59,799 nucleotides of DNA from Chloroflexota bacterium (GCA_034718215.1 JAYEMR010000067.1:1-59799), one strand, 5' to 3'. Positions 1,244 through 54,732 are shown, counted from the first letter of the stretch. Numbers and translations are program-made. The notes: generated by a model not told the origin, from the sequence alone.

Positions 1244-3058
1244 TCAACCCCTTTCCGCACCTATGCGGGCTAACTCCTCCTCTACGATTGATTCCTTCAG
1301 CTTCTTGAAGAGAGGTTGGGGACGCTGGAGGACCTGGCCAGGAGGCAGCTCACTGGGAGCCCATCTGCCCGTGGCGCCCATATGGTCGTAGCACAGCGCC
1401 CTGTGATGGCGGTCTTCATCCGTGAGCTCTCGGATGATGGGCTCGCCCAGGATCCGCCCCTCGTAGCCCAGGTACTCGTGGAGCCGCTGGCTGGAGAAGG
1501 GCAGGAAGGGTGCGAAGAGCACTTTCAGCGAATCTATGGCCCGCAGAGCCACATACAGGGTGGTAGCCGCCGCTTTGCGATCCTCCTTAATCTGGAACCA
1601 GGGCGCTTTCTCCTCCAGGTAGCGGTTCACCTCCCGGGCCAGGGCCATCACCTCTCCCAGCCCATCTCGGAATTGACAGCGATCTATCCGCTCCCCGATG
1701 GACTCGCCTGTCTGCCCGTGCCTGATCGGGTACAGGTGTGCAGGCAGGAAAGCCCCCTCGATCTGGGAGAGCAGCTCCCGGTCTCTATCATCTAACCCAT
1801 CCGGCTTCGGCACCCGCTGATCGAAGCGGCGATAGGCAAAGGTCAGCACCCGGTGGACTAGATTGCCCCAAGTAGCTACCAACTCATTATTGTTGCGGTG
1901 CAGAAATCCCTCCCAGGTGAAATCGGTGTCCCGGGTTTCAGGGGCGGCTGCCGTCAGGTAGTAGCGGATAGGATCGGGATCGTAGCGGGCGAGGATGTCA
2001 TCCAGCCACACCGCCCAGTTGCGGCTGCCGGAGATCTTCCGACCCTCCAGGTTCATAAACTCGTTGGATGGCACATCGTAGGGCAGATTGAGGCTCTTTC
2101 CTGGATCGTCCTCGTACAACTGGCCGACCCCCATCAGGATGGCTGGCCAGATGATGGTGTGGAAGGGGATGTTGTCCTTGGCGATGAAATAAAAACTGCG
2201 GGTGGGCTCGTACCACCACTCCTTCCACTTTTCGGGCTGGCCGATATTCGAGGCCCATTCGATGGAGGCGGAGAGGTAGCCGATCACCGCCTCGAACCAC
2301 ACGTAGATGACCTTGTCCTCGAAACCTGATACAGGGACAGGTACGCCCCACTCCATGTCCCGAGTGACGGCCCGCGCCTCCAAGCCATCGCGCAGGTAGT
2401 TTCGGGTGAAGTTCACCACATTGGGCCGCCAATGTGCCTTCGTCTCCACCCACTCCAGCAGCCGATCCTCAAACTGAGGTAGATCGAGGAAAAGGTGCTC
2501 TGTCTTTCTGAGGACCGGGGTCTGACCACACAGCTTGCAGACGGGGTTGATCAGCTCGGTGGCGTCCAGGGGATGTCCGCAAACCTCACATTGATCCCCT
2601 CGGACATTGGGGTTTCCACAAAAGGGACAGGTGCCTGTCACGTAGCGATCGGGCAGGAACATCTGATCTCGCTTGCAGTAGAGCTGCTCCACCTCCTCAC
2701 GGAAGAGATAGCCCTCATCCAGCAGTTTGATGAGGATGTCCTGGGAGATCCGGCGGTGATTTTCGGTGTCAGTGTGAGTGAATAGATCGTAGCTCAGTCC
2801 CAGCTCTTGGAAGTATCTCAGGAAATGCTCATGATGCTCTTGGAACACTCGATGAGGGGACTCCCCCTCCTCAGCAGCCTTTATCGCCACCGGAGTGCCG
2901 TGGCTGTCGGAGCCGGAGACCATGAGCACCTCGTTGCCCTTCAGCCGGTGATAGCGAGCTAGGATATCGGGCGGCAGATCTGCCCCGGCGATATTCCCAA
3001 TGTGCAATTTAGATGAAGCGTAGGGCCAGGCTACGCAGACCAAGATCTTCTCCCCCAT
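1244..3058 (-). CDS. metG: methionyl-tRNA synthetase
   Basis: 604-aa ORF with class I signature (WPYASSKLHIGN), Zn knuckles (CPFCG..CEVCG, C..CG), a KMSKS-like loop (KISGSR) and an anticodon-binding domain (NRYLEEKAPW). Confidence 0.95.
   Translation of the reverse strand: MGEKILVCVAWPYASSKLHIGNIAGADLPPDILARYHRLKGNEVLMVSGSDSHGTPVAIKAAEEGESPHRVFQEHHEHFLRYFQELGLSYDLFTHTDTENHRRISQDILIKLLDEGYLFREEVEQLYCKRDQMFLPDRYVTGTCPFCGNPNVRGDQCEVCGHPLDATELINPVCKLCGQTPVLRKTEHLFLDLPQFEDRLLEWVETKAHWRPNVVNFTRNYLRDGLEARAVTRDMEWGVPVPVSGFEDKVIYVWFEAVIGYLSASIEWASNIGQPEKWKEWWYEPTRSFYFIAKDNIPFHTIIWPAILMGVGQLYEDDPGKSLNLPYDVPSNEFMNLEGRKISGSRNWAVWLDDILARYDPDPIRYYLTAAAPETRDTDFTWEGFLHRNNNELVATWGNLVHRVLTFAYRRFDQRVPKPDGLDDRDRELLSQIEGAFLPAHLYPIRHGQTGESIGERIDRCQFRDGLGEVMALAREVNRYLEEKAPWFQIKEDRKAAATTLYVALRAIDSLKVLFAPFLPFSSQRLHEYLGYEGRILGEPIIRELTDEDRHHRALCYDHMGATGRWAPSELPPGQVLQRPQPLFKKLKESIVEEELARIGAERG
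1707..1748. repeat. 42-nt composite palindromic repeat inside metG, in frame
   Basis: cctgtctgcccgtgcctgatcgggtacaggtgtgcaggcagg. The outer arms CCTGTCTGC/GCAGGCAGG enclose a GATC-centred core. It is translated as LPAHLYPIRHGQTG. Confidence 0.8.
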
Positions 3059-3084
3059 GCTTCTCCCCTCCCATTATTAGAACT

Positions 3085-3176
3085 GGGTGCGTTTCAAACA
3101 GGTTGGTAGAGGTGGGCCTTGCGCCCACCCTAGGCACCCGCAAGGGATGCCTCTACAACCCAAATGAAGTACACCC
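3085..3176. repeat. 92-nt structured repeat, copy 1 (about 90% identical to 31651-31742)
   Basis: By-eye alignment gives 9 differences in 92 nt. Closing stem GGTAGAGG/CCTCTAC, hairpin GGTGGGC-cttgc-GCCCACC, hairpin GGCACCC-GCAA-GGG(A)TGCC, termini GGGTG...CACCC. It lies 26 nt upstream of the metG ATG, antisense to it. Confidence 0.85.
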
Positions 3177-3209
3177 ATTAGAATTTAATGTGACGTGATC
3201 AGGATGGTT

Positions 3210-3234
3210 CACCTGTACCCATAGGTGCGGGCAC
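3210..3234. repeat. degenerate copy of the 27-nt palindromic core
   Basis: cacctgtacccataggtgcgggcac, compared with the core cacctgtacccgatcaggtgcgggcac. Confidence 0.7.
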
Positions 3235-3340
3235 AAATAGTTTGACACTTCATCCCCCCTGTCCCCCTTCTCTCTCCTAGCATTGGGTTAGAGAAGAGGC
3301 TGGGGGATAGGTGAGGGCCAAGTTAGCAATATCCTACGTG

Positions 3341-3368
3341 ATTTTACCACAATTAGATGATAGAGCAA
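3341..3368 (-). promoter_or_regulatory. candidate sigma-70-type promoter for metG
   Basis: Minus strand reads TTGCTC-16 nt-(TGg)TAAAAT. This would give a 5' UTR of about 280 nt carrying both repeat types. Confidence 0.35.
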
Positions 3369-3407
3369 GGAGCTTGGATTCTACCCAGACGTTCTGAAAG
3401 CCTCGTT

Positions 3408-3497
3408 GCCCGCACCTGATCGCTCGTGCCTGCCCACACCTGATTGGGCACAGGTGATCGGCTGCAGGCGGGCAGGGGACAGGACCCGATCACCTGC
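3408..3497. repeat. cluster of GATC-centred palindromic repeat units
   Basis: gcccgcacctgatcg...cacacctgattgggcacaggtgatcgg...gacccgatcacctgc. It is intergenic, between the metG upstream region and the end of the solute-binding protein gene. Confidence 0.75.
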
Positions 3498-3499
3498 TA

Positions 3500-5724: not shown

Positions 5725-5776
5725 CCCAGCGCTCCTCTATGTGAATCTGCAAATATGCGAATTGCGAATCGGTGAA

Positions 5777-6940
5777 CTATTCGCCGATTCGCCCCTGTGA
5801 ATAGTCCTGCACCACCTCGTAGATGAGCTTGGGCTGGAAGTCGGTGGTGACGAAGGTGAAGTAGTCCTGATAGGTGTGCGCCGGACGGGGGTAGCGAAAG
5901 GCCCAGGGGCACAGGGCCCGGCACCAGGGCCACCGCTCCCGGGCCCACTCGTAGGCCCGCACGGTGTAGCGTGCCCGCTGGAGGGGGTGCACGGCCTTCG
6001 TCCAGCGGGGATGATCGTTCCAGCCTCCCTCGGTGATGTAGATATTTTTCGCTTCATCTCCATACTCGACCATGATCTCCCGCAGCAGTTCCACCCGTCG
6101 GAAGTTGATCTTATCAGGAGCCGGCGGGTCCTCCGGGGGGAAGCTCCAGCCGTAGGCGTGGACGGCCAACCCATCGAAGTGGTCGCCGGCCCCGGCCTCG
6201 TACATCCCCCGCAGGTACTCCAGATCGCCCATGGCCTCCGGATCACCTGGGAGGGCTAGCGTGGGCGCCAGCGCCCCGGCCAGGACCTGCACCTGCGGGT
6301 TGGCCTCCTTGGCCCGGGGATAAACCGCAGCTAGCAGCCGTGCGTAGCCGGCCGGATTGGGGGGACGGAAGCCCCACTCCAGGCTGACGTTAGGCTCGTT
6401 CCAGATGATGACATGGTTAACGCGCCCCTCGAAATGGGCCACGAAGGCGGCTACGAAGTCAGCGAAAGCTCCATATTTCGACTCATCCAAGTAGCTCAAA
6501 TTGGTGTCCGATGGACGAGCCCACTGGGGCACGAATCCCAGCCGGGCGATCACCGTCAGCCCCTGAGATCGGGCGTGATCCACAACCAGGTCGGCGTGTC
6601 TCCAATCGAAGCGGCCGGGCGAGGGCTCGCAGTAGGCCCAGGGGAAGTACTCCACGATCCAGGGCGCGCCCATCTCCCGCACCATCTGCAGCGTGCGCCT
6701 GATCTTCCACGGCTCCACCTCGTCGGTCAGCCGGGTGTGGACTCCCATCTTGGAGTTCACGGTCACCACCTCCTTCGGAGGCCCGATGCTCACCAGCACC
6801 TGTGACGATCCGGCGACCAGGGAGATGATTGCCAGCGTAATGGGCAGTAAAATACGGGTTCGAAGACCAGGGTTGCCCGTCTGTCCGCCTGCGCCTGTGG
6901 CGCATGCACAGGCGACGGACAGGCAAGTTACAAGTTGCAA
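5777..6940 (-). CDS. clan GH-A glycoside hydrolase (GH5/GH39-like); start codon uncertain
   Basis: VIIWNEPNVSLEWG, FPWAY, ITEGGW motifs. The first ~22 codons of the ORF are just the translated 48-nt palindrome. An AAGGAGG lies 8 nt before the in-frame GTG at 6760, and an alternative start would retain the ILLPITLAIISLVAG anchor. Confidence 0.6.
   Translation of the reverse strand: MQLVTCLSVACACATGAGGQTGNPGLRTRILLPITLAIISLVAGSSQVLVSIGPPKEVVTVNSKMGVHTRLTDEVEPWKIRRTLQMVREMGAPWIVEYFPWAYCEPSPGRFDWRHADLVVDHARSQGLTVIARLGFVPQWARPSDTNLSYLDESKYGAFADFVAAFVAHFEGRVNHVIIWNEPNVSLEWGFRPPNPAGYARLLAAVYPRAKEANPQVQVLAGALAPTLALPGDPEAMGDLEYLRGMYEAGAGDHFDGLAVHAYGWSFPPEDPPAPDKINFRRVELLREIMVEYGDEAKNIYITEGGWNDHPRWTKAVHPLQRARYTVRAYEWARERWPWCRALCPWAFRYPRPAHTYQDYFTFVTTDFQPKLIYEVVQDYSQGRIGE
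6876..6923. repeat. 48-nt palindromic repeat, family 2, copy 1
   Basis: cccgtctgtccgcctgcgcctgtggcgcatgcacaggcgacggacagg. Its reverse complement is about 90% identical to 11986-12033. Confidence 0.8.
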
Positions 6941-11415: not shown

Positions 11416-11985
11416 CGCAAATCTCCCTTCGATCTAAATTTGTGGAAACGATACGCGTAGTTTCATCAGAACCAGTTACTTCGTCGTTCATCACCTCCTT
11501 TCCCATCGCTGGTTGCCGCCGTTTCGCCTCTCCCACGATTTAAGATGATTTAGCATTCAGAAACAAACATGCCGACCGTCTCCCTGGCCCTATCCGGGAA
11601 AGGTCGGCACGTAATGAATCATTACGGTGATCCTCCGCTTAGGTATATTTCGTTCTGAGGATATCCCACCGCTTACCGCACGTTTATTATAACCCTTCTT
11701 CTGCTCCCCGTCAAGTTTCATGCCTCCAGCCCAATCCTTCTGAAAACCGTCGCTGATGGACTCGGTGCGTGCGATGTGTCGCTGCGCCCCAGGAGATGAA
11801 GTCGCCAGGCTCAGCTTCCTCTTTTGCTACCTGCAGCAACTTTGCTGAAGATCGTACAATTTGGTGATGGCCTCCAAAGCTCCTCCAGTGTCTCCTCTGC
11901 CGTATCTAGCCGCACCAGCCCCCGATGTTTGACCAGCGAGCGAGCAGATGGTAGAATATTCAGATGCTAGGGATGGCAGTGGTTT

Positions 11986-12033
11986 CCTGTCCGTCGTCTG
12001 TGCCTGCGCCACAGGCGACGGCGGACAGACGGG
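11986..12033. repeat. 48-nt palindromic repeat, family 2, copy 2 (inverted relative to 6876-6923)
   Basis: cctgtccgtcgtctgtgcctgcgccacaggcgacggcggacagacggg. Confidence 0.8.
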
Positions 12034-13378: not shown

Positions 13379-14428
13379 GTGGTGCGAGCTGAGGAGGCCG
13401 GCGCCGGGGCGGTGGTGATGAAATCGCTCTTCGAGAATCCCATACCCCGCCGAGGCGATCCTAGCCCCCACATGCGGCTTATCCAGCGGCGCATCGGCCG
13501 CGTGCGGGCTACCACCTTCTACTCCTATGAGCAGTGCTCCCCTTTCGACGAGGAGCGATATGCCGAGGAGGTACGACGGGCCAAGAAGCGGGTGGATATC
13601 CCAGTGATCGCCTCCCTCGACTGTGTCACCGAGGAGGGGTGGGTACGCTACTCCCGGCTGATGGAGGAGGCCGGGGCCGATGCGATAGAGATCAAGTCCT
13701 GCCCCCACGGGCCGCGACAGATGGGGGGAGAGGAGCTGACCAAGGCCACACAGATCGTGCGGGAAGCGACGGAACTGCCGGTCATCTCCAAGCTCCTGCC
13801 CCAGGACACCAACCCCCTGCGCACTGCGCTCGACCTGGAGCGGACGGGGGCCAGCGCGGTGGTGATGTTCAACCGCTTCTCCGGGCTGGACATTGATCTT
13901 GACGACGAGCAGCCCATCATGCACGGCGGCTACGCTGGCCACGGCGGTCCCTGGTCCATCTACTACTCCCTGCGCTGGATCGCAGAGGCCTATCCCCATC
14001 TATCCATTCCCATCTCCGGATCCGGCGGAGTATGGAGGGGGAACGACCTGGCGAAGTACATCCTGGCCGGAGCGACCACGGTCCAGGTTTGCTCCGCCGT
14101 GGTGTTGCAGGGATATGAGATCGTGCCCCGATTGCTAGGCGGGCTCAGAGAGTGGATGGAGGGGAAGGGATACAGCACGCCAGATGAGTTCCGGGGCCGG
14201 GCCGCGGAGCGGGTGCTGGGCCTCGAGGAAGTTGACCGGCGACGGCTCCTGCGGGCGGAGATTGATGCCGGGACGTGCACCGATTGTGACCTCTGCCGCC
14301 GGCTGTGCACTTACTCCGCCATCGAGTCCGAGCCGGAGTATCACGTGACCGAGGAGAAATGCGTAGGCTGCGGGCTGTGCGGGGAGATATGCCCGGTGGG
14401 AGCGGTCGAGATGGTGAAGCGCGATTGA
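13379..14428 (+). CDS. dihydroorotate/dihydropyrimidine dehydrogenase-like (PreA-like) flavoenzyme with C-terminal 2x[4Fe-4S] ferredoxin domain; N-terminus in another frame
   Basis: AGAGAVVMKSLFE...IPVIASL...GADAIEI, plus CTDCDLCRRLC and CVGCGLCGEICP. The expected N-terminus MDQQLSTDYAELTLR starts at ATG 13308 (RBS GGGGAGG) in a different frame. Confidence 0.7.
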   Translation: MVRAEEAGAGAVVMKSLFENPIPRRGDPSPHMRLIQRRIGRVRATTFYSYEQCSPFDEERYAEEVRRAKKRVDIPVIASLDCVTEEGWVRYSRLMEEAGADAIEIKSCPHGPRQMGGEELTKATQIVREATELPVISKLLPQDTNPLRTALDLERTGASAVVMFNRFSGLDIDLDDEQPIMHGGYAGHGGPWSIYYSLRWIAEAYPHLSIPISGSGGVWRGNDLAKYILAGATTVQVCSAVVLQGYEIVPRLLGGLREWMEGKGYSTPDEFRGRAAERVLGLEEVDRRRLLRAEIDAGTCTDCDLCRRLCTYSAIESEPEYHVTEEKCVGCGLCGEICPVGAVEMVKRD

Positions 14429-14442
14429 GAGGTTGATCGTTC

Positions 14443-14604
14443 GCCCGCATCTGCGCGTATCCTGTCTGCCTGTACCTGATCACCTGTGCCTGCCCGCACC
14501 TGCGCGGGTCCTGCCTGCGCAGACAGGACAGGTGATCAGGTGCAGGCAGGTGCGGGTAGGCATGGGTGCGCAGGCACCTGTCCGCACAAGCGGGAGACAG
14601 GTGG
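14443..14604. repeat. large composite cluster of palindromic repeat units
   Basis: Contains cctgtacctgatcacctg / caggtgatcaggtgcagg, tgcctgcccgcacctg / caggtgcgggtaggca and the central CCTGCCTGCGCAGACAGG (14510-14527). The arms are interleaved rather than simply nested. Confidence 0.8.
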
Positions 14605-14613
14605 AGGGGACAA

Positions 14614-15027
14614 ATGGCTGAGCGACGAAGGCTGATCTGCACCATCTGCCCCATGGGTTGTCAGTTGGATGTGCTTTTCGACCCGGAGACGGAGCAGGTG
14701 CTGGAGATTGAGGGGAACGGGTGAAGGCGGGCTTGGGCCTACGCGGAGAAAGAGCTGACCAATCCCACCCGCATGGTGACCACCACGGTGCGGGTGCGAG
14801 GTGGCGTGTGGCCCCTGGTACCGGTGCACACCGCCGAGCCGATCCCTAAATCGGGGATCTTCCCCCTGCTGGAGGAGCTTCACCGGGTGGAAGTGCAGGC
14901 TCCCGTGCGCTGCGGTCAGGTGATCCTGGCCGATGGGGCCAACACGGGGGTGGATGTGCTGGCCAGCCGGGACCTGCCCTCCTCCCACCTGTGCCTGATC
15001 AGGTGCAGGCAATCGCCTCGGACTTAG
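14614..15027 (+). pseudogene. DUF1667-family protein with in-frame TGA at a conserved Cys and a repeat-derived C-terminus
   Basis: MAERRRLICTICPMGCQLDV...EIEGNG[TGA 14722-14724]RRAWAYAEKELTNPTRMVTTTVRV...APVRCGQVILA...VLASRDL. The last ~12 codons (SHLCLIRCRQSPRT) come from repeat 14986-15010. Confidence 0.65.
14986..15010. repeat. palindromic repeat unit (CACCTGTGCCTGATCAGGTGCAGGC)
   Basis: Near-perfect palindrome centred on TGATCA. It forms the 3' end of the DUF1667 ORF, at the convergent junction with the PRTase gene. Confidence 0.8.
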
Positions 15028-15653
15028 CCCTGCAAGAGCTGGATGACCTCCGCATCGGTGGTCTGCCTGAAGTCCACGTAGAAGGCACCCACGGCCCAGA
15101 ATAGGCTGGGGGTGTGGAGGCAGACCATCCGATCCACCATATTGGCCAGCTTCTGAATGATATCGGGAGGGCCTACGGGTAGGGCGACGATCAACTCCCT
15201 CAGCTCCGTGGCCTCTAGGGCCTGGATGGCGGCTCGCATCGTGGCTCCCGTAGCTACTCCGTCGTCGGTCAAGATGATCGTCTTGTCCTTGAGATCGAGG
15301 GCGGGACGGCCTCCCCGATAGGCCTTCATCCGCCGCTGAATCTCTGCCCGCTGTCGCTCGGTCTCTGCCTCCAGATAGGACTGGGGCACGCCCAGATCCT
15401 CGATGAGGCGCTCATCGAGGACCACCTCACCGGAGCTGGCCACTGCACCCACCGCTAGCTCGGGGTTGTGAGGCGCTCTCAGCTTGCGGGCGATGAATAC
15501 ATCCAGTGGCGCATCCAGTGCCCGCGCTACCTCATCGGCCACTACTACCCCTCCGCGGGGGATGCCCAACACCAGTAGCTCCTCGCGCTCTTCCAGAAAT
15601 TCCAATCGCTCGGCCAACAACCTCCCCGCCTCGCGGCGGTCTTGAAAGCGCAT
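15024..15653 (-). CDS. phosphoribosyltransferase family protein
   Basis: 209 aa with a PRPP-binding loop (IILTDDGVATGATM) and N-terminal FxDRxEAG. Confidence 0.85.
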   Translation of the reverse strand: MRFQDRREAGRLLAERLEFLEEREELLVLGIPRGGVVVADEVARALDAPLDVFIARKLRAPHNPELAVGAVASSGEVVLDERLIEDLGVPQSYLEAETERQRAEIQRRMKAYRGGRPALDLKDKTIILTDDGVATGATMRAAIQALEATELRELIVALPVGPPDIIQKLANMVDRMVCLHTPSLFWAVGAFYVDFRQTTDAEVIQLLQG

Positions 15654-15678
15654 TCTCAGTCTCCAGGCCTATGATTCT

Positions 15679-15758
15679 CACCTGTGCCCGATCAGGTGCG
15701 GGCAGGCTGGCAAGCCGTTTAATGCCTCGGATCGCCTGTGCCTGATCAGGTGCAGGCG
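15679..15758. repeat. two palindromic repeat units separated by ~26 nt
   Basis: cacctgtgcccgatcaggtgcgggcagg (15679-15706) and cgcctgtgcctgatcaggtgcaggcg (15733-15758). Confidence 0.8.
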
Positions 15759-16356
15759 AAAGTTGTAGTAGGTGAAATCTGAGCTGCTCAGCATGATACC
15801 CCTCCCTCATTCGACAACTCACGTCATAGTGATTCTAGGATCCGCTCCAGAAAGCGCTTTCCCCTCTTGATATCCTCAACCTGCTGTGGGCCTGCGATCT
15901 CCCGCTCGATGGTCAGAGCTCCATCAAAGCCCAGTGATGTCAGCTTGGGGACAAGCAACGGATAATTGACCCGCCCTTCGCCCAGCGGTTTCTCCACTCC
16001 CAACTCGCGGCCGTTGGTAGGGTATTCTCCGTCTTTGGCATGGACGCCGCGCACATAGGTTCCTATTATATCCAGCGCATCCACTGGGTTCGCCTTGCCA
16101 TACATCAGCAGGTTCGCGGGATCTAGATTGATGCCCAGGTTATCCCTCCCCACATCCTCTATCGCTCTCAGCAGAGTGACCGGTGTCTCCTGGCCGGTCT
16201 CAAACCAGAAGCTCTGGCCCTTCTCTCCGCAGTAGTCGGCGATCTCCTTGAGAGCCTCCACCACACCAATGTAGCGGTGATCCGCCGGGTTCTCGGGGAT
16301 GAAACCCACGTGAGTAGTGATGCTGGATACACCAACGCGTCGGGCGAAATCAGAGC

Positions 16357-16390
16357 CCCGTCTGCCTGTACCCGATCAGGCACGGGTGAG
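16357..16390. repeat. palindromic repeat unit inside the TIM-barrel gene, stop-containing phase
   Basis: ccccgtctgcctgtacccgatcaggcacgggtgag. On the coding strand gcc TGA tcg falls in frame. Confidence 0.8.
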
Positions 16391-16496
16391 CACCTCCAAG
16401 CGCATCTCCCGTGTCTCCTCCGGCACCAGGCCAACGGTGCTGGGGCCCTCGATGAAATCCCACACATATCGCCCCGGCAAACCTGTCCAGATGGTT

Positions 16497-16523
16497 GTGC
16501 CCGCACCTGATCGGGTACAGGTG
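16497..16523. repeat. 27-nt palindromic core, exact reverse complement of 17152-17178, in frame in the TIM-barrel gene
   Basis: gtgcccgcacctgatcgggtacaggtg. Confidence 0.9.
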
Positions 16524-16695
16524 ATCTCCACGTCGTTGGCCTCAGCTGATCCGTGGAGCCGATCAGCTATCTCTTCGTTCAGGAGCTCTTGCTGCCAGCA
16601 CGTTACCTGGCACGTTGGGAAACCTAGATCATGTACCCTCTTCAGCTCCTCTTCCGGTCCCTTCTCCAGTGATGCTATCACCCCTAGTCTCATTC

Positions 16696-17787
16696 TTACT
16701 CCTTTCCGTTCACGGTCCGGCCATTTTCTATGGCTTCGATCTCTTTCCTGCCTGCGCAGACAGGATTCACCAGCCCCAGCGAGTCGCGGGCCGACTCCGG
16801 CGGGCACTTGATCGGACGCTCATCGTTCTTGACGCAGCGGAGGAAATAGGAGATCTCATTGGCATAGGCGTCGCCCTCCTCATACTCAGCCGGGCGCCCC
16901 TGCACCTCGACCAGGTCGTCGAAGACTTGGAGCGCCGGATTGCGCCTGCTATCGAAGCGGATCAATCCTGCTTCAAACCATGCGTCGTAGGCGGCGAAGA
17001 AAGGAGTTTGAGCCATACTCCACCCGGCGTGGATATGCACCTGAGGGCCTTCTTCGTAGTTGTAGAAGGCATGAATGATATCGTAGGAACCGGTCGCCTC
17101 TGACCTTCGGGCGGTAGCCTGGATGTGGTCCGGAAGGCCCAGTAGATAATTCACCTGTACCCGATCAGGTGCGGGCACATAATCCACATCGTGGATATGC
17201 AGGTCGAGGATAGTGCCGCCGCTGCGGGCAGGATCGAGGTACCATTTCTCCCAAGACCAGATCGGCCGTCCGCCCACACGGCTCATGTTCAGCGATAGAA
17301 GTTTTCCAAATGTGCCATCATGCATTCTCTGGCGCAGAAACTCATATTCGGGCCAGAAGCGGATGCACTGAGCGATCATCAGGAGGCGATCCGCCTCCCT
17401 GGCTGCCTCGATCATCTGGTCGGCCTCCTTGAGGGTCAGGGCCATTGGCTTCTCACAGAGCACGTGATGTCCGGCCTCCAGCGCCTCGATCGTGTACCGA
17501 GCGTGCAGGAAAGTCGGCAGGCAGATGTCCACCATGTCCACATCCGCCTCGGCGATGAGCTGGCTGCCATCCGGGTAACGATCCACGCCGGAGAGATCAG
17601 CCGGTCCGCTCTCGTCAGGGATGTTGCCGGCCACAAACTCCTCGGCCTCCAATCGCTCCGGCCTGATATCAGCGATGGCAACCAGCTCCGCGCTGGGGGT
17701 CTGGAGGTATCGGCCCGCGTGAAAGCCTCCCATCATCCCCAGGCCGATGACTCCTACTTTCACCTTTGAGACATCCCTTTTGACCAT
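16696..17787 (-). CDS. Gfo/Idh/MocA family oxidoreductase
   Basis: MVKRDVSKVKVGVIGLGMMGGFHAG... Rossmann N-terminus, with EKPMA and HIHD motifs. Start taken at ATG 17787, since the longer ORF prefix overlaps the upstream gene. It carries two repeat insertions. Confidence 0.85.
   Translation of the reverse strand: MVKRDVSKVKVGVIGLGMMGGFHAGRYLQTPSAELVAIADIRPERLEAEEFVAGNIPDESGPADLSGVDRYPDGSQLIAEADVDMVDICLPTFLHARYTIEALEAGHHVLCEKPMALTLKEADQMIEAAREADRLLMIAQCIRFWPEYEFLRQRMHDGTFGKLLSLNMSRVGGRPIWSWEKWYLDPARSGGTILDLHIHDVDYVPAPDRVQVNYLLGLPDHIQATARRSEATGSYDIIHAFYNYEEGPQVHIHAGWSMAQTPFFAAYDAWFEAGLIRFDSRRNPALQVFDDLVEVQGRPAEYEEGDAYANEISYFLRCVKNDERPIKCPPESARDSLGLVNPVCAGRKEIEAIENGRTVNGKE
16747..16764. repeat. 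18-nt 'empty' palindrome CCTGCCTGCGCAGACAGG inside the 3' end of the oxidoreductase gene
   Basis: Translated as PVCAGR. The same motif occurs at 14510-14527 and, truncated, at 41296-41310. Confidence 0.7.
17152..17178. repeat. 27-nt palindromic core, in frame in the oxidoreductase gene
   Basis: cacctgtacccgatcaggtgcgggcac, translated on the minus strand as VPAPDRVQV. It is flanked by ATAAT at 17146-17150 and 17179-17183. Confidence 0.9.
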
Positions 17788-17857
17788 ATTTGTTCCCCTT
17801 TTCTCGTCCAAGTGGTCTATCTGCGCTTTTGTGAGCCCGGCACCGCGCCGCCCGCCC

Positions 17858-18697
17858 TCATTCCCCGGAGAAGATGAGATCCATCGCCTGAGAGGTGGCC
17901 TGGAGGATGCTCTCCGGCCAGTGAGTGCGCGGCGAGAGCTCAGCGGTGCACCAACCATCGTATCCAACGTCGCGGAGCGCCTCCATCACCGCCGGGTAGT
18001 TCACATCCCCTGACAGGAGCTCGACGAACCCCTCCAGCGTGCCGACGTCGGTCTTGAAATCCTTGAAATGCACTTTCCTGATGCGTGAACCCAGCACTCG
18101 GATCCAATGCTCGGGATAGCCGGTGCGCATGATATTACCCACGTCAAAGTAGCATTGCACATAGGGATGGCCGACCCGGTCTATGAAATCCCGCATCTCG
18201 AGGGGGCTGTTAAGGAACTTGTTCCATACGTTCTCCACACCTATGTATACCTCATGCTGCTCGGCGATCGGCCCCAGCTCGCGGAAGTTCTCCAGGGCTC
18301 GATTGTACGCGGCCTCGTAGTCCTGAATCACGGCAGGGCCGGACTGAAAGGGCCCGGTGAAACCTGGCACCACCAGCATGGTGTCCACTCCAAGCACCCC
18401 AGCCAACTCCAGTCCCTTTCGTACGTGTCCCTTGGCCGTCTCGCGCTCCTCCCTGTCTTCGCTGATGAGATTAAATTGCCAGAGCACCCCCGTGGCCAGA
18501 GAGCAGATCTCAATACCCACCTCTCGGGCCATCTGGAGGATGGCTTTCATGTCCTCCGGGGTGGACTCAGGGCCAATAGGCCCTTTCAGGGCATAGGCCA
18601 ATTCGATACCCTCGAAGCCCGCCTTGTGTGCTAGGATCATGCAGCGACGCAGGTCACTCTGATCGCGAAAGGCCCAGATGTTAATGCCTTTTCTCAT
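17858..18697 (-). CDS. xylose-isomerase-like TIM-barrel sugar phosphate isomerase/epimerase
   Basis: 279 aa: MRKGINIWAF...GFEGIEL...ENVWN...YFDVGN. Confidence 0.85.
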   Translation of the reverse strand: MRKGINIWAFRDQSDLRRCMILAHKAGFEGIELAYALKGPIGPESTPEDMKAILQMAREVGIEICSLATGVLWQFNLISEDREERETAKGHVRKGLELAGVLGVDTMLVVPGFTGPFQSGPAVIQDYEAAYNRALENFRELGPIAEQHEVYIGVENVWNKFLNSPLEMRDFIDRVGHPYVQCYFDVGNIMRTGYPEHWIRVLGSRIRKVHFKDFKTDVGTLEGFVELLSGDVNYPAVMEALRDVGYDGWCTAELSPRTHWPESILQATSQAMDLIFSGE

Positions 18698-18752
18698 CTC
18701 TCTACCTTCCTATATCCGAAGTCAATGTCCGATGGTCTCCCCCAGACATTTT

Positions 18753-18800
18753 GCCTGTCTCCGCCTGCACCCGATCAGGCACGGGCGAGCAGGTGCGGGT
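18753..18800. repeat. palindromic repeat units downstream of the deacetylase-like gene
   Basis: gcctgtctccgcctgcacccgatcaggcacgggcgagcaggtgcgggt. Confidence 0.75.
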
Positions 18801-30006: not shown

Positions 30007-30034
30007 CTGCCTGCACCTGATCAGGCACAGGTGG
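30007..30034. repeat. palindromic repeat unit downstream of the regulator gene
   Basis: ctgcctgcacctgatcaggcacaggtgg. Confidence 0.8.
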
Positions 30035-31309: not shown

Positions 31310-31645
31310 CAACATATTTAGGAAAGACTGTGAACAGGAAAAGTAGCCATCAAGGCGAGGTCCAGAGAGTCGGGGGTAGGTGGAAGCCCGATACCGGTGC
31401 GGATGGTGAATGGGCCTGGGAGTTGCGGCGCCGAGGGGGAGTTTAGTAGGCGCCGCCGGAGTCGCCACCGTTATCAGGGCTGAGGGTATCGGATAGCGTT
31501 GTCGGCTATCCCGTACCTGCGAAGAGTGAGGCTGGCTCACACTATCCGCCGTTCACCGGCGGATTTTTGTATTGGGCGGCCTAAAGTGGGTGGCACCACG
31601 GGAGAAACCCTCTCGTCCCTTCAGTTGGGGCGGGAGGGTTTTTTT
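31310..31645 (+). promoter_or_regulatory. T-box riboswitch leader (tRNA-sensing), presumably Trp-specific
   Basis: Stem I distal motifs AGAGAGTCGGGGGTAGGTGGAAGCCCG. T-box sequence AAAGTGGGTGGCACCACGGG (31583-31602). Terminator CCCTCTCGTCCC-ttcagtt-GGGGCGGGAGGG plus T7. Candidate specifier GAA-UGG-G at 31411-31413. The UGGC bulge fits a G73 discriminator. Confidence 0.8.
31608..31645 (+). terminator. intrinsic terminator of the T-box leader
   Basis: 12-bp GC-rich stem (two mismatches), 7-nt loop and a TTTTTTT tract (31639-31645). Confidence 0.8.
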
Positions 31646-31650: not shown

Positions 31651-31742
31651 GGGTGCGTTTCGAACAGGTTGGTAGGGGCGGGCCTTGCGCCCACCCTGGG
31701 CACCCGCAAGAGGTGCCCTTACAACCCAAATGAAATACACCC
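31651..31742. repeat. 92-nt structured repeat, copy 2
   Basis: Same architecture as 3085-3176. It sits between the T-box terminator and the trpE RBS, 22 nt before the ATG, sense to trpE. Confidence 0.85.
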
Positions 31743-31764
31743 TTTTGGTTCAGGGAAAGAGAAG

Positions 31765-41280: not shown

Positions 41281-41319
41281 CGCCTGTCTGCCCGTCCTGC
41301 CTGCGCAGAGACGATCACC
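41281..41319. repeat. palindromic repeat unit (CCTG/CAGG word family), truncated
   Basis: cgcctgtctgcccgtcctgcctgcgcagagacgatcacc. Confidence 0.6.
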
Positions 41320-41589
41320 AGGATAAAGGCCTGACCATACAGTTTCGCGATAGCGAAAAGATCAAGGTCCAACCACAGCCAACCACGCCAGTCGTGATGA
41401 AAGGCTTGGCTGTGCAAGCGCCAGATATTTGTTTACTGCTTAGGGCCAAATGAAGTTGGCCCATTCTAGCCCGACAGCTTGTTAAAGTCCAGTCGAGGGG
41501 GAATAGAAACCCGGTATCTTTGCACGAACCCACGAACCAATGTAAACACGGGATTCTTGCGCAAAAGTAAGGTATTGAGTATTCTCTGC

Positions 41590-41785
41590 TGGTGATTACC
41601 TATATCTTCAACGAGAGGACCGAGGCGTCCCCGCCGAGGGATATGCTGACTATCCCGTCTCCTGCCTGCGCCCTGTCCGCACAGGCGGGAGACAGGGTCC
41701 GACGGACAGGGAAAAGCTTCGGCGAGGACGCCTCAGCCCTCAAATCTGCCAGTACCTGGTACAGGTGAGATGTGGGTAATCACCA
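41590..41785. repeat. ~196-nt nested-palindrome, MITE-like element
   Basis: 11-bp terminal inverted repeats TGGTGATTACC (41590-41600) / GGTAATCACCA (41775-41785). An inner inverted repeat GAGGCGTCCCCGCCGA / TTCGGCGAGGACGCCTC encloses cccgtctcctgcctgcgccctgtccgcacaggcgggagacaggg. Confidence 0.6.
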
Positions 41786-53300: not shown

Positions 53301-53498
53301 TCGGAAGGAGGCACAGATATCCCTGCGCCCCCATCGGCTGCCGGGCGGGCAGGCCCGCCAGCCCTCTGGGTCAGCTCCTTCCAGCCGCCCCTCCTGCCAC
53401 TCCACGGCCAGCGGACTGCTGTCCCAAAAGAGGTGTTCTCCCAGCTCTTCGATGCGTCGGGTGAGCTTTCTCACGGTGAAACGTCTGTCCTGCCGCAT
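50373..53498 (-). CDS. GH38 alpha-mannosidase
   Basis: 1041 aa. GHAHIDTAWLW, GTWVEMD and FHRGTYTT motifs, plus C-terminal GH38 domains. Confidence 0.9.
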   Translation of the reverse strand: MRQDRRFTVRKLTRRIEELGEHLFWDSSPLAVEWQEGRLEGADPEGWRACPPGSRWGRRDICASFRARGEAPEEWDGKPVVALLQLATTGDLSGPEGLVYLNGETYQGLDRGHTEVRLTDSAEPGQRWEIEIEGYTSARLERDYQVEETMLAVPDETAIALYYNAKTALEVAQTLEEEDYNRTRILRTLDEGLQFVDWRGPLGQEFRASLARANAYIESELYGKLSTGNQPSVVGVGHAHIDTAWLWTLAQTREKAARTFATVLRLMERYPEYHFTQSQPQLYQFVKEDHPELLPQIARRVEEGRWEPIGGTWVEMDCNVTGGESLVRQFLLGTRLFEEYFSTPGSPVLWLPDVFGYAWALPQIIKRAGFEYFMTTKISWNEYNKLPYDSFWWRGIDGTEVLTHFINTPSRHWFATYNGTLEPWQVKGTWDTYKQKEHHDEVLLSFGLGDGGGGPTAEMLEYGRRLRDFPGSPRLSLGRADDFFRKLEEDASGLPVWNGELYLEFHRGTYTTQARNKRANRKSELLYHDAELFGALAHLWGDDYPQDVLNKGWELILLNQFHDIIPGSSIGPVYEESQDQYRELMGWGEQVLDEALEHIVDQMELAGDAPALVVFNPTGWVRCDPAEVKVSMDELIQLVGPIFRLIGPSGEEVPYQPVGEWGIIFPAKGVPANGYHTYRLAPGEPRASVEEPVTLEDLTFENRFFSVQLNQAGQIISWWDKIAERQVLPEGKVANQFQAFEDKPLANDAWNINIYYQDKQWNADDPAQIRVLERGPLRACLEVKRAFLHSEITQRITAYADLPRLDFETEVEWWEKHVLLKVAFPVEVHNTRATYDIQFGNVERPTHWNTSWDWARFETCAHKWVDLSEGDYGVSLLNDCKYGHDIKGNVIRLTLLRSPAEPDPHADEGHHEFTYSLLPHAGGWRAQTVQRAYELNEPLLARFSEPHEGTRPDSFSLVSADVPNVVVETVKRAEEGEELIVRCYECYNQRGPVTLTFGRPIVEATECNLMEREDQPVEFEGDQLLFHVKPYQIRTFRVCLK

Positions 53499-53535
53499 GT
53501 TTCTCTCCCTCCTTCCTACGGCGAACGGCGAGAGG

Positions 53536-54732
53536 TTAGGTTGCTATCTGAACGCTCAGCGCATCCAGGACCAACTGGATGGGGGTGATGACGGTGGTGA
53601 GATTGGAGCCGGCGAAGAGGAGTCCTACGACGTATCCTTCCTCATCTAAGACCACCGAGCCGGAGTCGCCCCCGCTGCACATGGGCCCGGCCATCAACTG
53701 GCCGGTAAAGACGGCATTTCTCTCCCCGTAGTTCACCTTCACGGTGACTTCAATCTGGCGGATATCGCCCTGGGTGTGGCCCGTGGTGCGCCCGCTTTTC
53801 TGCACTTTGGTGCCCAGCGTGGCCTCACGCACGCCTTTGGGTAACCCGACCTCCAAGATATGCCGTTCCACCAGGTCGTTCGACAGAGGATGAGCGAGGG
53901 CGGCATCAACCTGGTTCTCCGCCGCTGCGAGCCGATAGCTTTGCACACGATGGCTGGAGCCAACAGCTCGCGCGGCCTGGTTGAGTATCTTCTCGGCAGC
54001 GCTGGCTACAGTGCACTCCGCCTCCTCGGTGCCGAAGTGGATAGGGATGAATGTCTCCAGTACCCCGATCTCATCGGACAGAGTTCCGCCGTCGTAGCGT
54101 CCGGGCTGGATGATGGTATCGCCAGGGTTAGCTCTATTAGTGTTGGCCAGCACATGGTTGTTGGAGAGGATGAACAGTTTCCCCTTACCAGGGACAGGCC
54201 CCTTACCAGGGACAGGCCCCTTACCATGGGCAGGCCCCTCTCGTGTCACCAAGCAGCCGAGCGTCCCGGCTGTGACATCCACATGGCCGATGGAGACCCC
54301 GCCCGGCGCTGGTCTCCATTTATCACGGGGGTCCGCTTCCTCGGGAGGTGCAGGTCCCACCTGTGCCTGCCCGCACCTGATCGGGTACAGGTGATCAGGT
54401 ACAGGCAAAGCCCGGATCTTTCCCACCTCCGCTACATCTGTCTTGACCCCCTCTTCCGCCTGTGCGCCCGTGCCTGATCGGGTGCAGGCGGACGGGATCG
54501 TTCTGGGAACCAAATCCTGGGGGGCAAGTTGAGCGGCGGGGACCTTCCGCTCCACTGAGACAACGACAGCGGGCTCCTCAGTGAGTACTCCGCCGGTCTC
54601 TTTGTAACCCACTCCGCAGGCCACTACGTTAGGCTTGGCCAAAAGATAGCCGAGGTTCTGTCGCTTAGCCTGGATAGCCATTTCCCAGGATTGACCTGGA
54701 CAGGCCCAGGATTGACCTGGACGGGTTGTCAT
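53536..54732 (-). CDS. chymotrypsin-fold (S1-like) serine protease with an N-terminal alpha/beta pre-domain; carries two palindromic-repeat inserts and two tandem in-frame repeats
   Basis: Triad context SNNHVLA, VDAALA, GGDSGS. ATG 54732 is preceded by GAAGGAG. Inserts read ACTRSGTGAQA and PVPDHLYPIRCGQAQVGPA. Confidence 0.75.
   Translation of the reverse strand: MTTRPGQSWACPGQSWEMAIQAKRQNLGYLLAKPNVVACGVGYKETGGVLTEEPAVVVSVERKVPAAQLAPQDLVPRTIPSACTRSGTGAQAEEGVKTDVAEVGKIRALPVPDHLYPIRCGQAQVGPAPPEEADPRDKWRPAPGGVSIGHVDVTAGTLGCLVTREGPAHGKGPVPGKGPVPGKGKLFILSNNHVLANTNRANPGDTIIQPGRYDGGTLSDEIGVLETFIPIHFGTEEAECTVASAAEKILNQAARAVGSSHRVQSYRLAAAENQVDAALAHPLSNDLVERHILEVGLPKGVREATLGTKVQKSGRTTGHTQGDIRQIEVTVKVNYGERNAVFTGQLMAGPMCSGGDSGSVVLDEEGYVVGLLFAGSNLTTVITPIQLVLDALSVQIAT
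54181..54234. repeat. 18-nt tandem repeat x3 inside the protease gene (GKGPVP units)
   Basis: ccccttaccagggacagg occurs twice, then ccccttaccatgggcagg. In frame. Confidence 0.9.
54358..54406. repeat. palindromic repeat units inside the protease gene, in frame
   Basis: cacctgtgcctgcccgcacctgatcgggtacaggtgatcaggtacaggc. Confidence 0.85.
54457..54496. repeat. palindromic repeat unit inside the protease gene, in frame
   Basis: cgcctgtgcgcccgtgcctgatcgggtgcaggcggacggg. Confidence 0.85.
54684..54725. repeat. 21-nt tandem duplication at the protease N-terminus (PGQSW x2)
   Basis: cccaggattgacctggacagg / cccaggattgacctggacggg. Confidence 0.9.

Follow-up and report, generated by a model that had tools for sequence, protein, structure and literature searches.

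A single 59.8-kb contig of a Chloroflexota MAG (hereafter the window, the whole stretch of DNA analysed, to which the copy census is confined) carries about 19 copies of a 24-nt unit together with an 18-nt companion. These repeats form a real and discrete family and are probably ultra-small, non-autonomous, selfish insertion units. At 24 and 18 bases, they are among the smallest DNA elements with signs of mobility to be seen in bacteria.

The 24-nt core consists of four CNNG-YR hexamers, CCYG-YR-CCYG-AT-CRGG-YR-CRGG-YR, and the second unit type, the companion, is an 18-nt palindrome. The family is real because exact and near-exact copies occur where none are expected by chance. A 27-mer named in a preliminary description of this DNA was found exactly at 17152-17178 (plus strand) and as its reverse complement at 16497-16523 (minus strand), with 0 expected in shuffles, and variants with one to three mismatches lie at 1712, 15679 and 54367. 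All of the close variants and both multi-unit clusters listed in that description are present, as is the loss of GATC at 3210-3234, which is shared by the copy at 3433 (reading GATT). The companion likewise occurs as described, with two exact copies (14510 and 16747) and a truncated one (41296). Twelve full CCYG-YR-CCYG-AT-CRGG-YR-CRGG cores are found in the window, and the two-word seed of the core is observed 38 times versus about 5 expected. The family is discrete because its short words and GATC are not enriched outside it (GATC, 422 observed versus 505 expected; CTGATCAG, 3 versus 3.0; CCGATCGG, 0 versus 0.4). The units of the window are as follows.

1706-1747, minus strand: metG insertion, 42 nt in frame (LPAHLYPIRHGQTG), the 18-nt companion having a 24-nt core (1715-1738) at its centre
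3210-3234, plus strand: degenerate intergenic unit, GATC lost (CACCTGTACCCATAGGTGCGGGCA)
3409-3480, unstranded: intergenic nest of three 24-nt units, each centred inside the next; innermost 3433-3456
14469-14558, unstranded: intergenic four-level nest, the companion (14510-14527) in a core, in a second core, in a third core
14986-15011, plus strand: unit in the DUF1667 gene (14614-15027), supplying its C-terminal tail (…PSSHLCLIRCRQSPRT*)
15679-15704, plus strand: intergenic unit
15733-15758, plus strand: intergenic unit of the CG-flanked subfamily
16363-16388, minus strand: TIM-barrel insertion (gene 15824-16693, minus), 24 nt, TRA*SGTG, in-frame TGA; 8-codon gap in 10 homologues, DNA comparison with L093
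16498-16523, minus strand: insertion in the same TIM-barrel gene, 24 nt, TCTRSGAG; 8-codon gap in 10 homologues, DNA comparison
16747-16764, minus strand: Gfo/Idh/MocA insertion (gene 16696-17787, minus), 18-nt companion, NPVCAG, in frame close to the C-terminus; 6-codon gap in 11 homologues, DNA comparison
17152-17177, minus strand: Gfo/Idh/MocA insertion, 24 nt, PAPDRVQV, between conserved HDVDY and VNYLLG; 8-codon gap in 11 homologues, DNA comparison
18762-18787, unstranded: intergenic unit of the CG-flanked subfamily
30008-30033, unstranded: unit in the spacer between convergent genes, matching that at 14986 exactly as its reverse complement (inverted repeat)
41296-41313, plus strand: companion, truncated or diverged, intergenic
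54360-54407, minus strand: two nested 24-nt units (48 nt, read as PVPDHLYPIRCGQAQV; inner 54370-54393) in a linker of the protease gene (53536-54801, minus)
54454-54495, minus strand: protease insertion, 42 nt in frame (PSACTRSGTGAQAE), a CG-subfamily core inside a diverged 18-nt companion, resolved by de-nesting

The conserved feature of the core is its interleaved complementarity and not a simple hairpin. Under the A-B-A'-B' arrangement that the preliminary description proposed, 98.1% of cells are paired, a value reached by 0 of 500 shuffles, and 5 of the 12 pairs show changes on both sides; a plain palindrome, in contrast, leaves 79.8% paired, below the shuffles and with no compensatory pair. 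Independent compensatory events are few (about 3-4), the copies being related by descent and two TT-type copies being identical. Single units fold into stems of 6-8 bp with 8-nt loops, exactly those of the interleaved pairing, and the two 6-bp hairpins of the core overlap and cannot form together.

Alignment with orthologues identifies seven lineage-specific and exactly in-frame insertions, distributed among metG, the Gfo/Idh/MocA oxidoreductase, the TIM-barrel gene and the protease, with lengths of 24, 18, 42 (18+24) or 48 (24+24) nt. As the preliminary description had anticipated, no orthologue examined has any of these segments at the corresponding position. At the DNA level, filled sites are longer than empty ones by exactly 42 nt in metG and by 24, 24, 24 and 18 nt in the TIM-barrel and Gfo/Idh/MocA genes. 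The metG insert adds 14 amino acids that are missing from 14 orthologues (one of them at 84% identity), and removal of the core followed by the companion restores the empty site of the relatives, bearing out the view that one is nested in the other; judging from conservation, the copy is probably placed at a turn. In the protease, the segment at 54360-54407 is extra relative to 9 homologues (about +16 aa), and that at 54454-54495 corresponds to a 14-residue gap in 9 homologues (+14 aa). The frame is kept at every in-gene copy, as had been claimed, but the TIM-barrel copy at 16363-16388 brings an in-frame TGA (...EVLTRA*SGTGRRG...), for which reason this otherwise intact gene, 83% identical to its homologue, is listed as two ORFs. 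In the homologue model, this copy falls in helix 87-107 and the one at 16498-16523 in core strand 59-64. The DUF1667 copy, listed in the preliminary description among those inside otherwise conserved ORFs, lies outside the conserved domain as a C-terminal tail, the Pfam DUF1667 domain stopping at residue 119, ahead of it.

Nesting of the units is Russian-doll-like and reaches four levels, each deletion of an inner unit recreating an intact outer one. The inner unit enters at the GATC centre of the outer one, and three types are seen: core in companion, companion in core, and core in core at the GATC centre. A perfect outer unit is recreated by inner-unit removal at 54360-54407, 14469-14558 and 3409-3480. 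De-nesting yields two units with 0 substitutions in the protease, two cores with 0 substitutions and one with 2 at 14469-14558, and units with 1, 2 and 3 substitutions at 3409-3480, where the innermost unit bears a compensatory CCCA/TGGG change. The fold of the nest at 14469-14558 is a long hairpin (-45.5 kcal/mol, z = -5.8).

Every unit has the same YR dinucleotide on either side, giving a net gain of 24 nt. In each of the 18 aligned copies the two flanking dinucleotides are identical, as compared with 25 of 81 chance matches to the pattern in other genomes, and empty sites already contain one copy of the dinucleotide. New copies are added precisely beside this pre-existing CR/YG dinucleotide, which thereafter flanks them on both sides. 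The 2-nt direct repeat may represent a target duplication, a microhomology or the end of the element, three readings that look alike in sequence; the arms of the unit pair poorly as terminal inverted repeats. The target was analysed over 22 reconstructed sites, each turned so that the flanking dinucleotide reads CA or CG and each selected for identity of that dinucleotide with the unit's last two bases; the C at -2 (22/22) and the A or G at -1 are therefore fixed by selection and orientation and do not count as a preference in their own right. Neither step affects the upstream consensus TGATCA, though it comes largely from nested sites: among the 15 non-nested ones, only 7 have T at -3. Preference for TGATCA-like sites, resting largely on nested ones, is strong, and since the GATC centre of the unit and the centre of the companion are themselves such sites, copies pile up as nested palindromes.

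A relative with 81% identical metG carries the family at other, non-syntenic loci. Its sequences come from three independent JGI metagenome assemblies, in which two loci were each recovered twice (L086 = L091 and L087 = L088). Four of the five loci are inside ORFs, and the copies occupy domain II of dnaA, the tail of purF, a core strand of tatD, with the copy immediately ahead of the IHxRE strand (conserved; IHDRE in this genome), and a membrane protein of the PMT_2 type.

Both lengths, 24 and 18 nt, are divisible by three and five of the six frames of the unit are free of stops, so that insertions into genes usually add eight or six codons without destroying the gene. The unit is read in all six frames, including the single frame with a stop, and its readings in different frames and orientations (PAPDRVQV, HLYPIR(H/C)G, TCTRSGAG, TRA*SGTG and HLCLIRCR) agree with the peptides given previously. 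A comparison of intragenic and intergenic frequency, suggested in the preliminary description and made here within the window, finds 87.3% of the window to be coding, yet just 7 of the 14 primary loci, or 8 of the 19 units, to lie in coding sequence. Copies thus appear to be rarer in coding DNA, where selection may remove harmful ones. In essential genes they would survive only at permissive sites, as suggested by metG, with its copy at a probable turn, and by dnaA and purF of the relative, with theirs in a linker or C-terminal tail. Several copies are placed in core secondary-structure elements, and the genes in which a core beta-strand or helix is broken are probably dispensable. The earlier proposal that copies are tolerated in proteins is only partly borne out: one copy brings a stop codon, others break a core strand or helix, and those of the essential genes occupy the probable turn, the linker and the tail.

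A mobilising activity for these units is purely our inference. No transposase, HUH/RAYT enzyme, recombinase or integrase is present among the ORFs of the 59.8-kb window, which also contains no IS element; a RAYT or Y1 transposase flanked by units, considered a possible source by the preliminary description, is likewise missing from these ORFs. A putative enzyme encoded elsewhere in the genome could copy or move the units in trans, recognising them as single-stranded DNA via two alternative 6-bp hairpins (A:A' or B:B', with 8-nt loops). One candidate would be an HUH/Y1-type single-strand transposase, to our knowledge the only kind of transposase that seems physically compatible with a 24-nt substrate. 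Known IS200/IS605 elements require two separate end hairpins, whereas the two hairpins of the core overlap, which counts against this explanation.

A rather unlikely alternative is that the units need no dedicated transposase and spread by templated repair or template switching. Here, a polymerase or break repair would copy a unit from another locus, or from abundant small ssDNA, by means of 2-6 nt of microhomology on each side. The apparent 2-3-nt duplications are equally readable as such microhomologies, targets look like the element's own sequence (TGATCA or CA^GAC(G/A)GG), and the window is without a transposase. A microhomology of 2 nt, however, would rarely yield uniform 24-nt products at 19 or more sites, and those without likeness beyond CA (such as ATTCA^CATA in the Gfo/Idh/MocA gene) are hard to account for. 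The TIM-barrel copy at 16363 and locus L087 agree in their right flank, where nine bases outside the unit, GACGGGG and neighbours, are identical in both, and an A-to-G change adjoins the TIM-barrel site as if co-converted. Together, these two features hint at microhomology-guided copying rather than clean transposition; a donor with longer common flanks was not seen.

The preliminary description likened the family to REP/REPIN or Rickettsia RPE mobile palindromes. The mobile character stands, as units are absent from orthologues, occupy exact-length filled sites with empty counterparts, are nested and lie in frame like RPEs, but membership in either class does not. It is very doubtful that the units are REP/REPINs moved by a RAYT (TnpA_REP) whose gene lies in another part of the genome. 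They resemble the REP/REPIN-RAYT system (PMC3116915, PMC3733652) as short, GC-rich, palindrome-like repeats with hairpin potential that are both dispersed and clustered, and single-stranded-DNA recognition seems most plausible for units so small. One end of a REP carries a conserved tetranucleotide, GTAG or CGTC, and GTAG-tagged REPs have been reported from some Chloroflexi (PMC3733652); the present units have no GTAG, and while CGTC (GACG on the listed strand) lies beside one end, on one strand, in 4 of 22, the other 18 have no tag. A REP is also a 20-40-bp imperfect palindrome with one stem-loop, a model that fails for the interleaved unit (79.8% paired, no covariation). Whereas REPs are extragenic, 7 of the 14 primary loci are in coding sequence, and units are nested instead of forming REPIN doublets. 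With no single stem-loop, no conserved tag, half of the loci intragenic and no RAYT in the window, REP/REPIN membership is not supported.

In-gene copies might never reach the protein, either because the mRNA loses them or because the ribosome bypasses them. Bypass has parallels in phage T4, at the gap of gene 60, and in the mitochondria of Magnusiomyces, with their mobile byp inserts; the mitochondrial GC clusters of yeasts are also mobile inserts, GC-rich and a few tens of bases long. Mobile bypassed inserts have been described elsewhere (PMC13461519; bioRxiv 10.1101/2022.08.31.505936), and the byp elements of yeast mitochondria are, like the present units, small, GC-rich and found inside protein-coding genes (PMC13461519). 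Removal or bypass would make sense of copies in the core beta-strand and helix of the TIM barrel, just before the IHxRE strand of the relative's tatD, and within the HDVDY|VNYLLG motif of Gfo/Idh/MocA, as well as of the in-frame TGA in a gene still 83% identical to its homologue. Identical in-frame GTG codons bracket the unit in Gfo/Idh/MocA, but such matching take-off and landing codons are found only there, and splicing or bypass signals are not conserved. Copies of essential genes at only a probable turn, a linker or a tail form the pattern expected if they are translated and selected. Byps, moreover, are organellar and break the frame, whereas the bacterial units keep it and give no evidence of bypass. 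On balance, this reading appears improbable.

A non-mobile, selected cis-element arising in place, such as a pair of protein-binding operators, an uptake sequence or an iterated palindrome like HIP1, is largely refuted. HIP1 (GCGATCGC) is a cyanobacterial 8-mer whose 15- to 300-fold enrichment stems from selection or mutation bias and not from insertion (PMC5861425, PMC4390886). Its GATC-centred palindrome, found in coding and non-coding DNA, resembles the centre of the unit, and a pair of overlapping 6-N8-6 inverted repeats could accommodate two dimers. The Chloroflexota copies, in contrast, are nested, discrete net insertions of exact length relative to orthologues and not substitutions; neither GATC nor CTGATCAG or CCGATCGG is itself over-represented, as a HIP1-like palindrome would be, and base pairing explains the compensatory changes better than protein recognition. 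Although the source is a MAG contig, an artefact of assembly or library, or chance, is scarcely credible with 0 copies expected and the family found at other loci in three independent assemblies, two of these loci twice.

The units can be compared with several further systems. RPEs are also palindromic repeats that lie in frame in unrelated, otherwise conserved genes and add lineage-specific peptide segments, but they measure about 100-150 bp with one conserved peptide per family (PMC10969869, PMC3733652), as against inserts of 24, 18, 42 or 48 nt read in six frames, one with a stop; membership was rejected on length and on the one-peptide rule, in spite of the in-frame insertion. MITEs and IS200/IS605-derived palindrome-associated elements are similarly non-autonomous and hairpin-forming, with precise insertion beside a short specific sequence and a dinucleotide repeat at the flanks. 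At 70-300 bp (PMC3733652), MITEs are several-fold larger, and a parental IS is not found in the window. The terminal inverted repeats of the Chloroflexota unit would be the whole element, and its overlapping hairpins do not mark two ends as in the IS200/IS605 derivatives.

The nearest analogue is the small dispersed repeats (SDRs) of cyanobacteria. SDR1-8 of the Nostocaceae, reportedly described by Elhai and colleagues in 2008, are said to be 21-27 nt long, the size class of the 24- and 18-nt units. Their consensus is presumably unrelated to the Chloroflexota unit, and we know of no enzyme associated with either. Both are dispersed and palindrome-like, occur alone or nested in a second conserved sequence, and owe their inferred mobility to filled and empty sites. 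Insertion into a GATC-centred palindrome is also common to both, as SDR5 may insert at the HIP1 palindrome, which contains GATC (PMC5861425). SDRs are not known outside the Nostocaceae (PMC5861425), whereas the present units belong to another phylum, the Chloroflexota. These units further differ in their interleaved A-B-A'-B' complementarity, in nests of up to four levels whose outer units are intact once the inner ones are removed, and in their frequent in-frame placement in housekeeping genes.

Exact copies of the 27-mer at 17152-17178 and, as the reverse complement, at 16497-16523, with none expected in shuffles, confirm the repeat family named in the preliminary description. Three further copies of the 27-mer lie in the window at three or fewer mismatches, and the 18-nt companion palindrome has two exact copies there. 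Besides clusters, a degenerate search of the window found 12 uninterrupted cores matching CCYG-YR-CCYG-AT-CRGG-YR-CRGG, and a profile search found 13 uninterrupted and 6 interrupted units, or about 19 in total. The two-word seed occurs 38 times in the window against roughly 5 expected. Since GATC itself (422 observed, 505 expected from trinucleotides) and the component words are not otherwise enriched, the copies represent a discrete repeat family and not a HIP1-like oligonucleotide bias. As a background control, the 22-mer pattern CCYGYRCCYGATCRGGYRCRGG was sought in genome contigs. Unrelated genomes of high GC gave at least 81 single matches by chance; the background matches listed cover all 16 word-type combinations, and the window holds only TCTC, CTCT and TTTT.

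The 24-nt unit may be written s0-w1-s1-w2-AT-w3-s2-w4-s3, where w denotes the CCYG/CRGG words and s the YR dinucleotides. Pairing was examined in 18 aligned copies, 12 from the window and 6 from a relative (81% identity to the window in metG). In every copy, w1 matches w3 and w2 matches w4. An interleaved model, in which s0w1 pairs with w3s2 (A:A') and s1w2 with w4s3 (B:B'), gives 98.1% standard pairs with 5 of 12 pairs changed on both sides (the copies share descent, and only about 3-4 double changes are independent), and was matched by none of 500 shuffles. An ordinary palindrome model leaves 79.8% paired with no compensatory pairs, below the shuffles. Coordinated changes include CCCG/CGGG to CCTG/CAGG, CA..TG to TG..CA and, at 3433, CCCG/CGGG to CCCA/TGGG. 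A single unit folds as either of the two stems, 6-8 bp long and closed by a loop of 8 nt, at -5 to -6.6 kcal/mol (z about -1 to -2), so the two mutually exclusive hairpins of the preliminary description are correct. Folds this weak speak against a simple hairpin or terminator role, and an H-type pseudoknot uniting A:A' with B:B' would be sterically implausible because its connecting loops would measure 0, 2 and 0 nt. The units show no strand bias (5 versus 4 on the + strand) and no orientation bias relative to host genes (4 versus 2).

Alignment of the host proteins with 9-14 homologues per gene bears out the suspicion that the segments are lineage-specific.

Extra segments in window genes relative to homologues
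metG, product MetRS: extra LPAHLYPIRHGQTG, 42 nt, versus 14 orthologues, the nearest 84% identical
16696-17787 (-), Gfo/Idh/MocA gene: extra PAPDRVQV, 24 nt, versus 11 homologues
16696-17787 (-), Gfo/Idh/MocA gene: extra NPVCAG, 18 nt, versus 11 homologues
15824-16693 (-), TIM-barrel gene, insert 1: extra TCTRSGAG, 24 nt, versus 10 homologues
15824-16693 (-), TIM-barrel gene, insert 2: extra TRA*SGTG, 24 nt, versus 10 homologues
53536-54801 (-), protease gene: extra PSACTRSGTGAQAE, 42 nt, versus 9 homologues
53536-54801 (-), protease gene: about 16 extra residues, 48 nt, versus 9 homologues, in a linker of variable length

Across its insert MetRS reads ...GAFLPAHLYPIRHGQTGESIG..., and in the DNA the filled metG site TTC[42 nt]GAG faces the empty sites TTT-GAG and TTC-GAG of two relatives. 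The corresponding pairs are TAT[GTGCCCGCACCTGATCGGGTACAG]GTGAAT and TACGTCAAC for Gfo/Idh/MocA, ATCAC[CTGTACCCGATCAGGTGCGGGCAC]AACC and ATCACGACA for TIM-barrel insert 1, and CTCA[CCCGTGCCTGATCGGGTACAGGCA]GACGG and CTCAAACGG for insert 2. The net gain at the compared sites is always 24 nt, 18 nt or the sum of both. A 2-3-nt direct repeat brackets the unit, with one repeat copy already present in the empty site; s0 equals s3 in 18 of 18 aligned copies (TG in 11, CA in 4, CG in 3), against 25 of the 81 chance matches listed.

When the window clusters are de-nested, the multi-unit arrays prove to be Russian-doll nests. At 54360-54407, once the inner 24 nt are taken out, the flanks form a second perfect 24-nt unit. 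The nest at 14469-14558 has four levels, in which removal of the 18-mer leaves a core with 2 substitutions and the next removals leave two perfect cores in turn; that at 3409-3480 is three levels deep. Removing the core and then the companion from metG restores GGACTCGAAAGCCCC, the empty site of relatives. Within another unit, the insertion point is CCTG^ATC, equivalent to GATCA^GG, i.e. the GATC centre. The target logo comprises 22 reconstructed sites, all put in the orientation that gives CR for the repeated dinucleotide; the C found at -2 in every one of the 22, like the A or G at -1, therefore follows from how the sites were selected and oriented. The upstream consensus TGATCA comes mostly from nested sites, T being found at -3 in only 7 of 15 non-nested sites, and CA^GAC(G/A)GG recurs among the 22. 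Targets in genes fit: GTGATCA^TCC in tatD, GAGATCA^C and GCTCA^ for TIM-barrel inserts 1 and 2, and ATTCA^C in Gfo/Idh/MocA. As read from the sequence, the nests, insertion point and target logo are strong evidence for sequential, site-preferring insertion.

The preferred reading, and a likely one, is that the units form a mobile family of ultra-small insertions. There are hints of its main rival, a transposase-free templated insertion guided by microhomology. The TIM-barrel copy at 16363-16388 and the copy in the relative's purF share the unit subtype and nine identical bases beyond the unit, namely the right flank GACGGGG and its neighbours (window 16389-16397). The same TIM-barrel copy has an adjacent A-to-G change, giving Arg in the window where all homologues have Lys. 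To judge by these bases, neither the shared nine nor the A-to-G change is explained by clean transposition. An origin by restriction-fragment ligation is rejected because GATC is missing from both sides of the junctions, and a DNA uptake sequence is rejected because the copies arose as insertions rather than substitutions.

The 24-nt unit is free of stops in five of six frames, the exception being ..CC TGA TC.., and this frame is realised at 16363-16388, where the TGA falls at 16375-16377. The earlier view that in-frame copies are tolerated therefore holds in that the inserts keep the frame, and fails for this copy, which puts a stop into the TIM-barrel gene. Units in genes use all six frames, so no preferred reading is apparent. 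In a good model of an insert-free TIM-barrel homologue (pLDDT 87.8), the inserts map to core strand 59-64 and helix 87-107; the gene with its two inserts is probably in the process of being lost, and 17858-18697 holds an intact paralogue. The AlphaFold2 model of Gfo/Idh/MocA with inserts (mean pLDDT 52, below 50 around the insert) is too poor to use. Other sites look permissive: the metG site, a probable inter-helix turn from its conservation pattern, the DnaA linker, the PurF and DUF1667 tails and the protease linker. The coding share of the window is 87.3%, yet only half of the primary loci lie in coding sequence. Ten of 19 units and two companions fall at 14400-18800, a 4.4-kb run of sugar-enzyme genes, and no unit lies between 30.1 and 54.3 kb. 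This clustering could reflect short-range hopping, or a decaying operon in which selection is relaxed. Taken together, site permissiveness, coding depletion and uneven spread fit near-random insertion followed by purifying selection, and the same pattern weakly argues that the inserts are translated rather than removed.

A strict 26-nt pattern, scanned across the JGI metagenome collection, returned only 7 stretches, all in Ga0209979, Ga0114930 and Ga0114921. They represent 5 loci, 2 of which were found twice in different samples, and none is syntenic with the window. Ga0209979 and Ga0114930 also contain the relative, whose metG and surrounding 21.8-kb locus hold no unit copy. In the relative, 4 of 5 unit loci lie within ORFs, in frame.

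Units in genes of the relative
DnaA: unit in the linker between domain I and the ATPase domain
PurF: unit in the C-terminal tail
PMT_2 membrane protein: unit in the ORF, in frame
TatD: 8-residue TCARSGAG between PVI and IHDREA, by alignment to PDB 2gzx

The strict pattern has 8 matches within the 60 kb of the window, so the family looks to have expanded in the window's lineage. Viral contigs gave no match to the strict 26-mer. An identical 25-mer, CACCTGTACCTGATCAGGCACGGGG (word type TT/TC), occurs on contigs of a Dehalococcoidia MAG (L042, 4091-4115) and an Anaerolineae MAG (L082, 3268-3292), and may represent diverged family relatives in other Chloroflexota or chance.

Among known systems, the closest likeness is to the cyanobacterial SDRs. 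SDRs are reportedly 21-27 nt long and nested. They possibly insert into GATC-containing HIP1 and are reported from Nostocaceae only (PMC5861425). The preliminary description had proposed a REP/REPIN-like or RPE-like mobile palindrome; mobility is the likely part of that proposal, and palindromic inserts in frame in genes do recall the Rickettsia RPEs (PMC10969869), but the 24-nt family fails defining tests of REP/REPIN and RPE as well as of MITE and HIP1. It is therefore classed with the very small mobile repeats, a known kind, here in a new phylum. In the literature searched, the unit motif was absent and such repeats were likewise undescribed in Chloroflexi or Anaerolineae. What sets the family apart is its new architecture (interleaved complementarity, four hexamers, 8 codons), its self-nesting and how often it resides in housekeeping genes. 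As far as established, this would be only the second documented bacterial family of mobile repeats as small as 20-30 nt and the first beyond cyanobacteria.

A 24-bp duplex is too small to circularise or to hold a conventional synaptic complex. HUH/Y1 enzymes handle IS200/IS605 ends and REPs as single-stranded DNA through hairpins, and insert 3' of a short sequence with no true duplication. Given the size limit, one-hairpin handling of the HUH/Y1 type would be the most plausible known chemistry; against it stand the overlapping hairpins and the gene content, as no transposase, integrase or HUH enzyme is found among the genes of the 59,799-bp window. The RAYT or IS200-IS605 Y1 transposase suggested earlier as a neighbour flanked by units is likewise missing from these 59.8 kb. 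In the sequence itself, the insertions are precise and quantised and flanked by a CR repeat, the units target their own GATC centre, and the interleaved complementarity is maintained. In the mechanism proposed, selfish units would be mobilised in trans, each processed as single-stranded DNA via two mutually exclusive 6-bp hairpins and targeting its own GATC centre; the enzyme could be a dedicated, hitherto unrecognised one or a known HUH enzyme in new use. The 8-codon length and near stop-free design would then allow housekeeping genes to be colonised and lineage-specific peptide segments to be written into them. That a dedicated single-strand enzyme mobilises the units is rather doubtful. It is just as speculative to place the 24-nt unit in a new mobile-DNA class, at the smallest size that transposition allows, uniting two-hairpin single-strand handling, a dedicated or newly used HUH enzyme, GATC self-targeting and gene colonisation.

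Ever since REPs and SDRs became known, it has been a question how units too small for transposase coding or synapsis are copied. In conserved genes, the exact insertions of 24 and 18 nt offer filled and empty sites at single-base resolution, and the perfectly de-nesting nests serve as a record of insertion order. An enzyme search could start from the CR dinucleotide at the flanks, the TGATCA target and the interleaved hairpins. Selfish DNA may in this way give rise to new protein segments of 6-16 residues, as in MetRS or, in the relative, DnaA. For MAG annotation the units are a hazard, splitting ORFs via in-frame TGA and inflating apparent 'lineage-specific inserts'.

The window as a whole (G+C about 60%) has its nearest protein relatives in Anaerolineae, Thermoflexia and Caldilineaceae MAGs, and its housekeeping genes include metG, aspS, trpS, a T-box-led trp operon, sugar enzymes, glycosyltransferases and DNA glycosylases. 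The sole Rfam match over the window, with nothing at the repeats, is an ordinary T-box leader at 31321-31623 (+), 118 bits, upstream of trpE and the trp operon, which includes trpS. Nearest the contig start, an ORF at 280-972 (+) with a GTG start at 280 matches the Type ISP specificity domain in its C-terminal part only (positions 164-306 of 342), also has a DUF559 (Vsr-like) domain, and has the look of a Type ISP restriction-modification enzyme fragment. The DUF1667 gene at 14614-15027 (+) has an in-frame TGA at 14722-14724 in its Cys-rich N-terminal part (…EIEGNG*RRAWAYAEKE…), and the Pfam match with this codon read through has E = 7e-29. The family presumably conserves Cys at this position; the TGA could encode selenocysteine or else mark a pseudogene, and the RNA fold downstream is unremarkable (z = 0.3).

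Other small repeats are also present. A 95-nt element at 3085-3179 and 31651-31745 (copies 89% identical) lies upstream of metG and just after the T-box, and folds into a Y shape (-46 and -48 kcal/mol, z = -4.8 and -3.2). It has no Rfam match and resembles a MITE or a structured RNA; the relative, which resembles the window only as far as 3074, lacks the metG-side copy. A 51-nt hairpin element with the vocabulary CCTG/GTCTG/CAGG occurs at 6876-6926 and 11983-12033, its two copies being 90% complementary (-30 to -34 kcal/mol). Further small palindromes of similar vocabulary lie at 41283-41320, 41650-41705 and 14577-14605, with CCCTGTCCGCACAGGCGGGAGACAGGG at 41672 similar to CACCTGTCCGCACAAGCGGGAGACAGGTG at 14577, and the genome seems to have several 'companion' types. 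Finally, the protease gene carries at 54181-54239 three copies of an 18-nt tandem repeat (GKGPVP x3) that its homologues lack, and the repeated unit, CCTGTCCCTGGTAAGGGG, has words in common with the 24-nt family.
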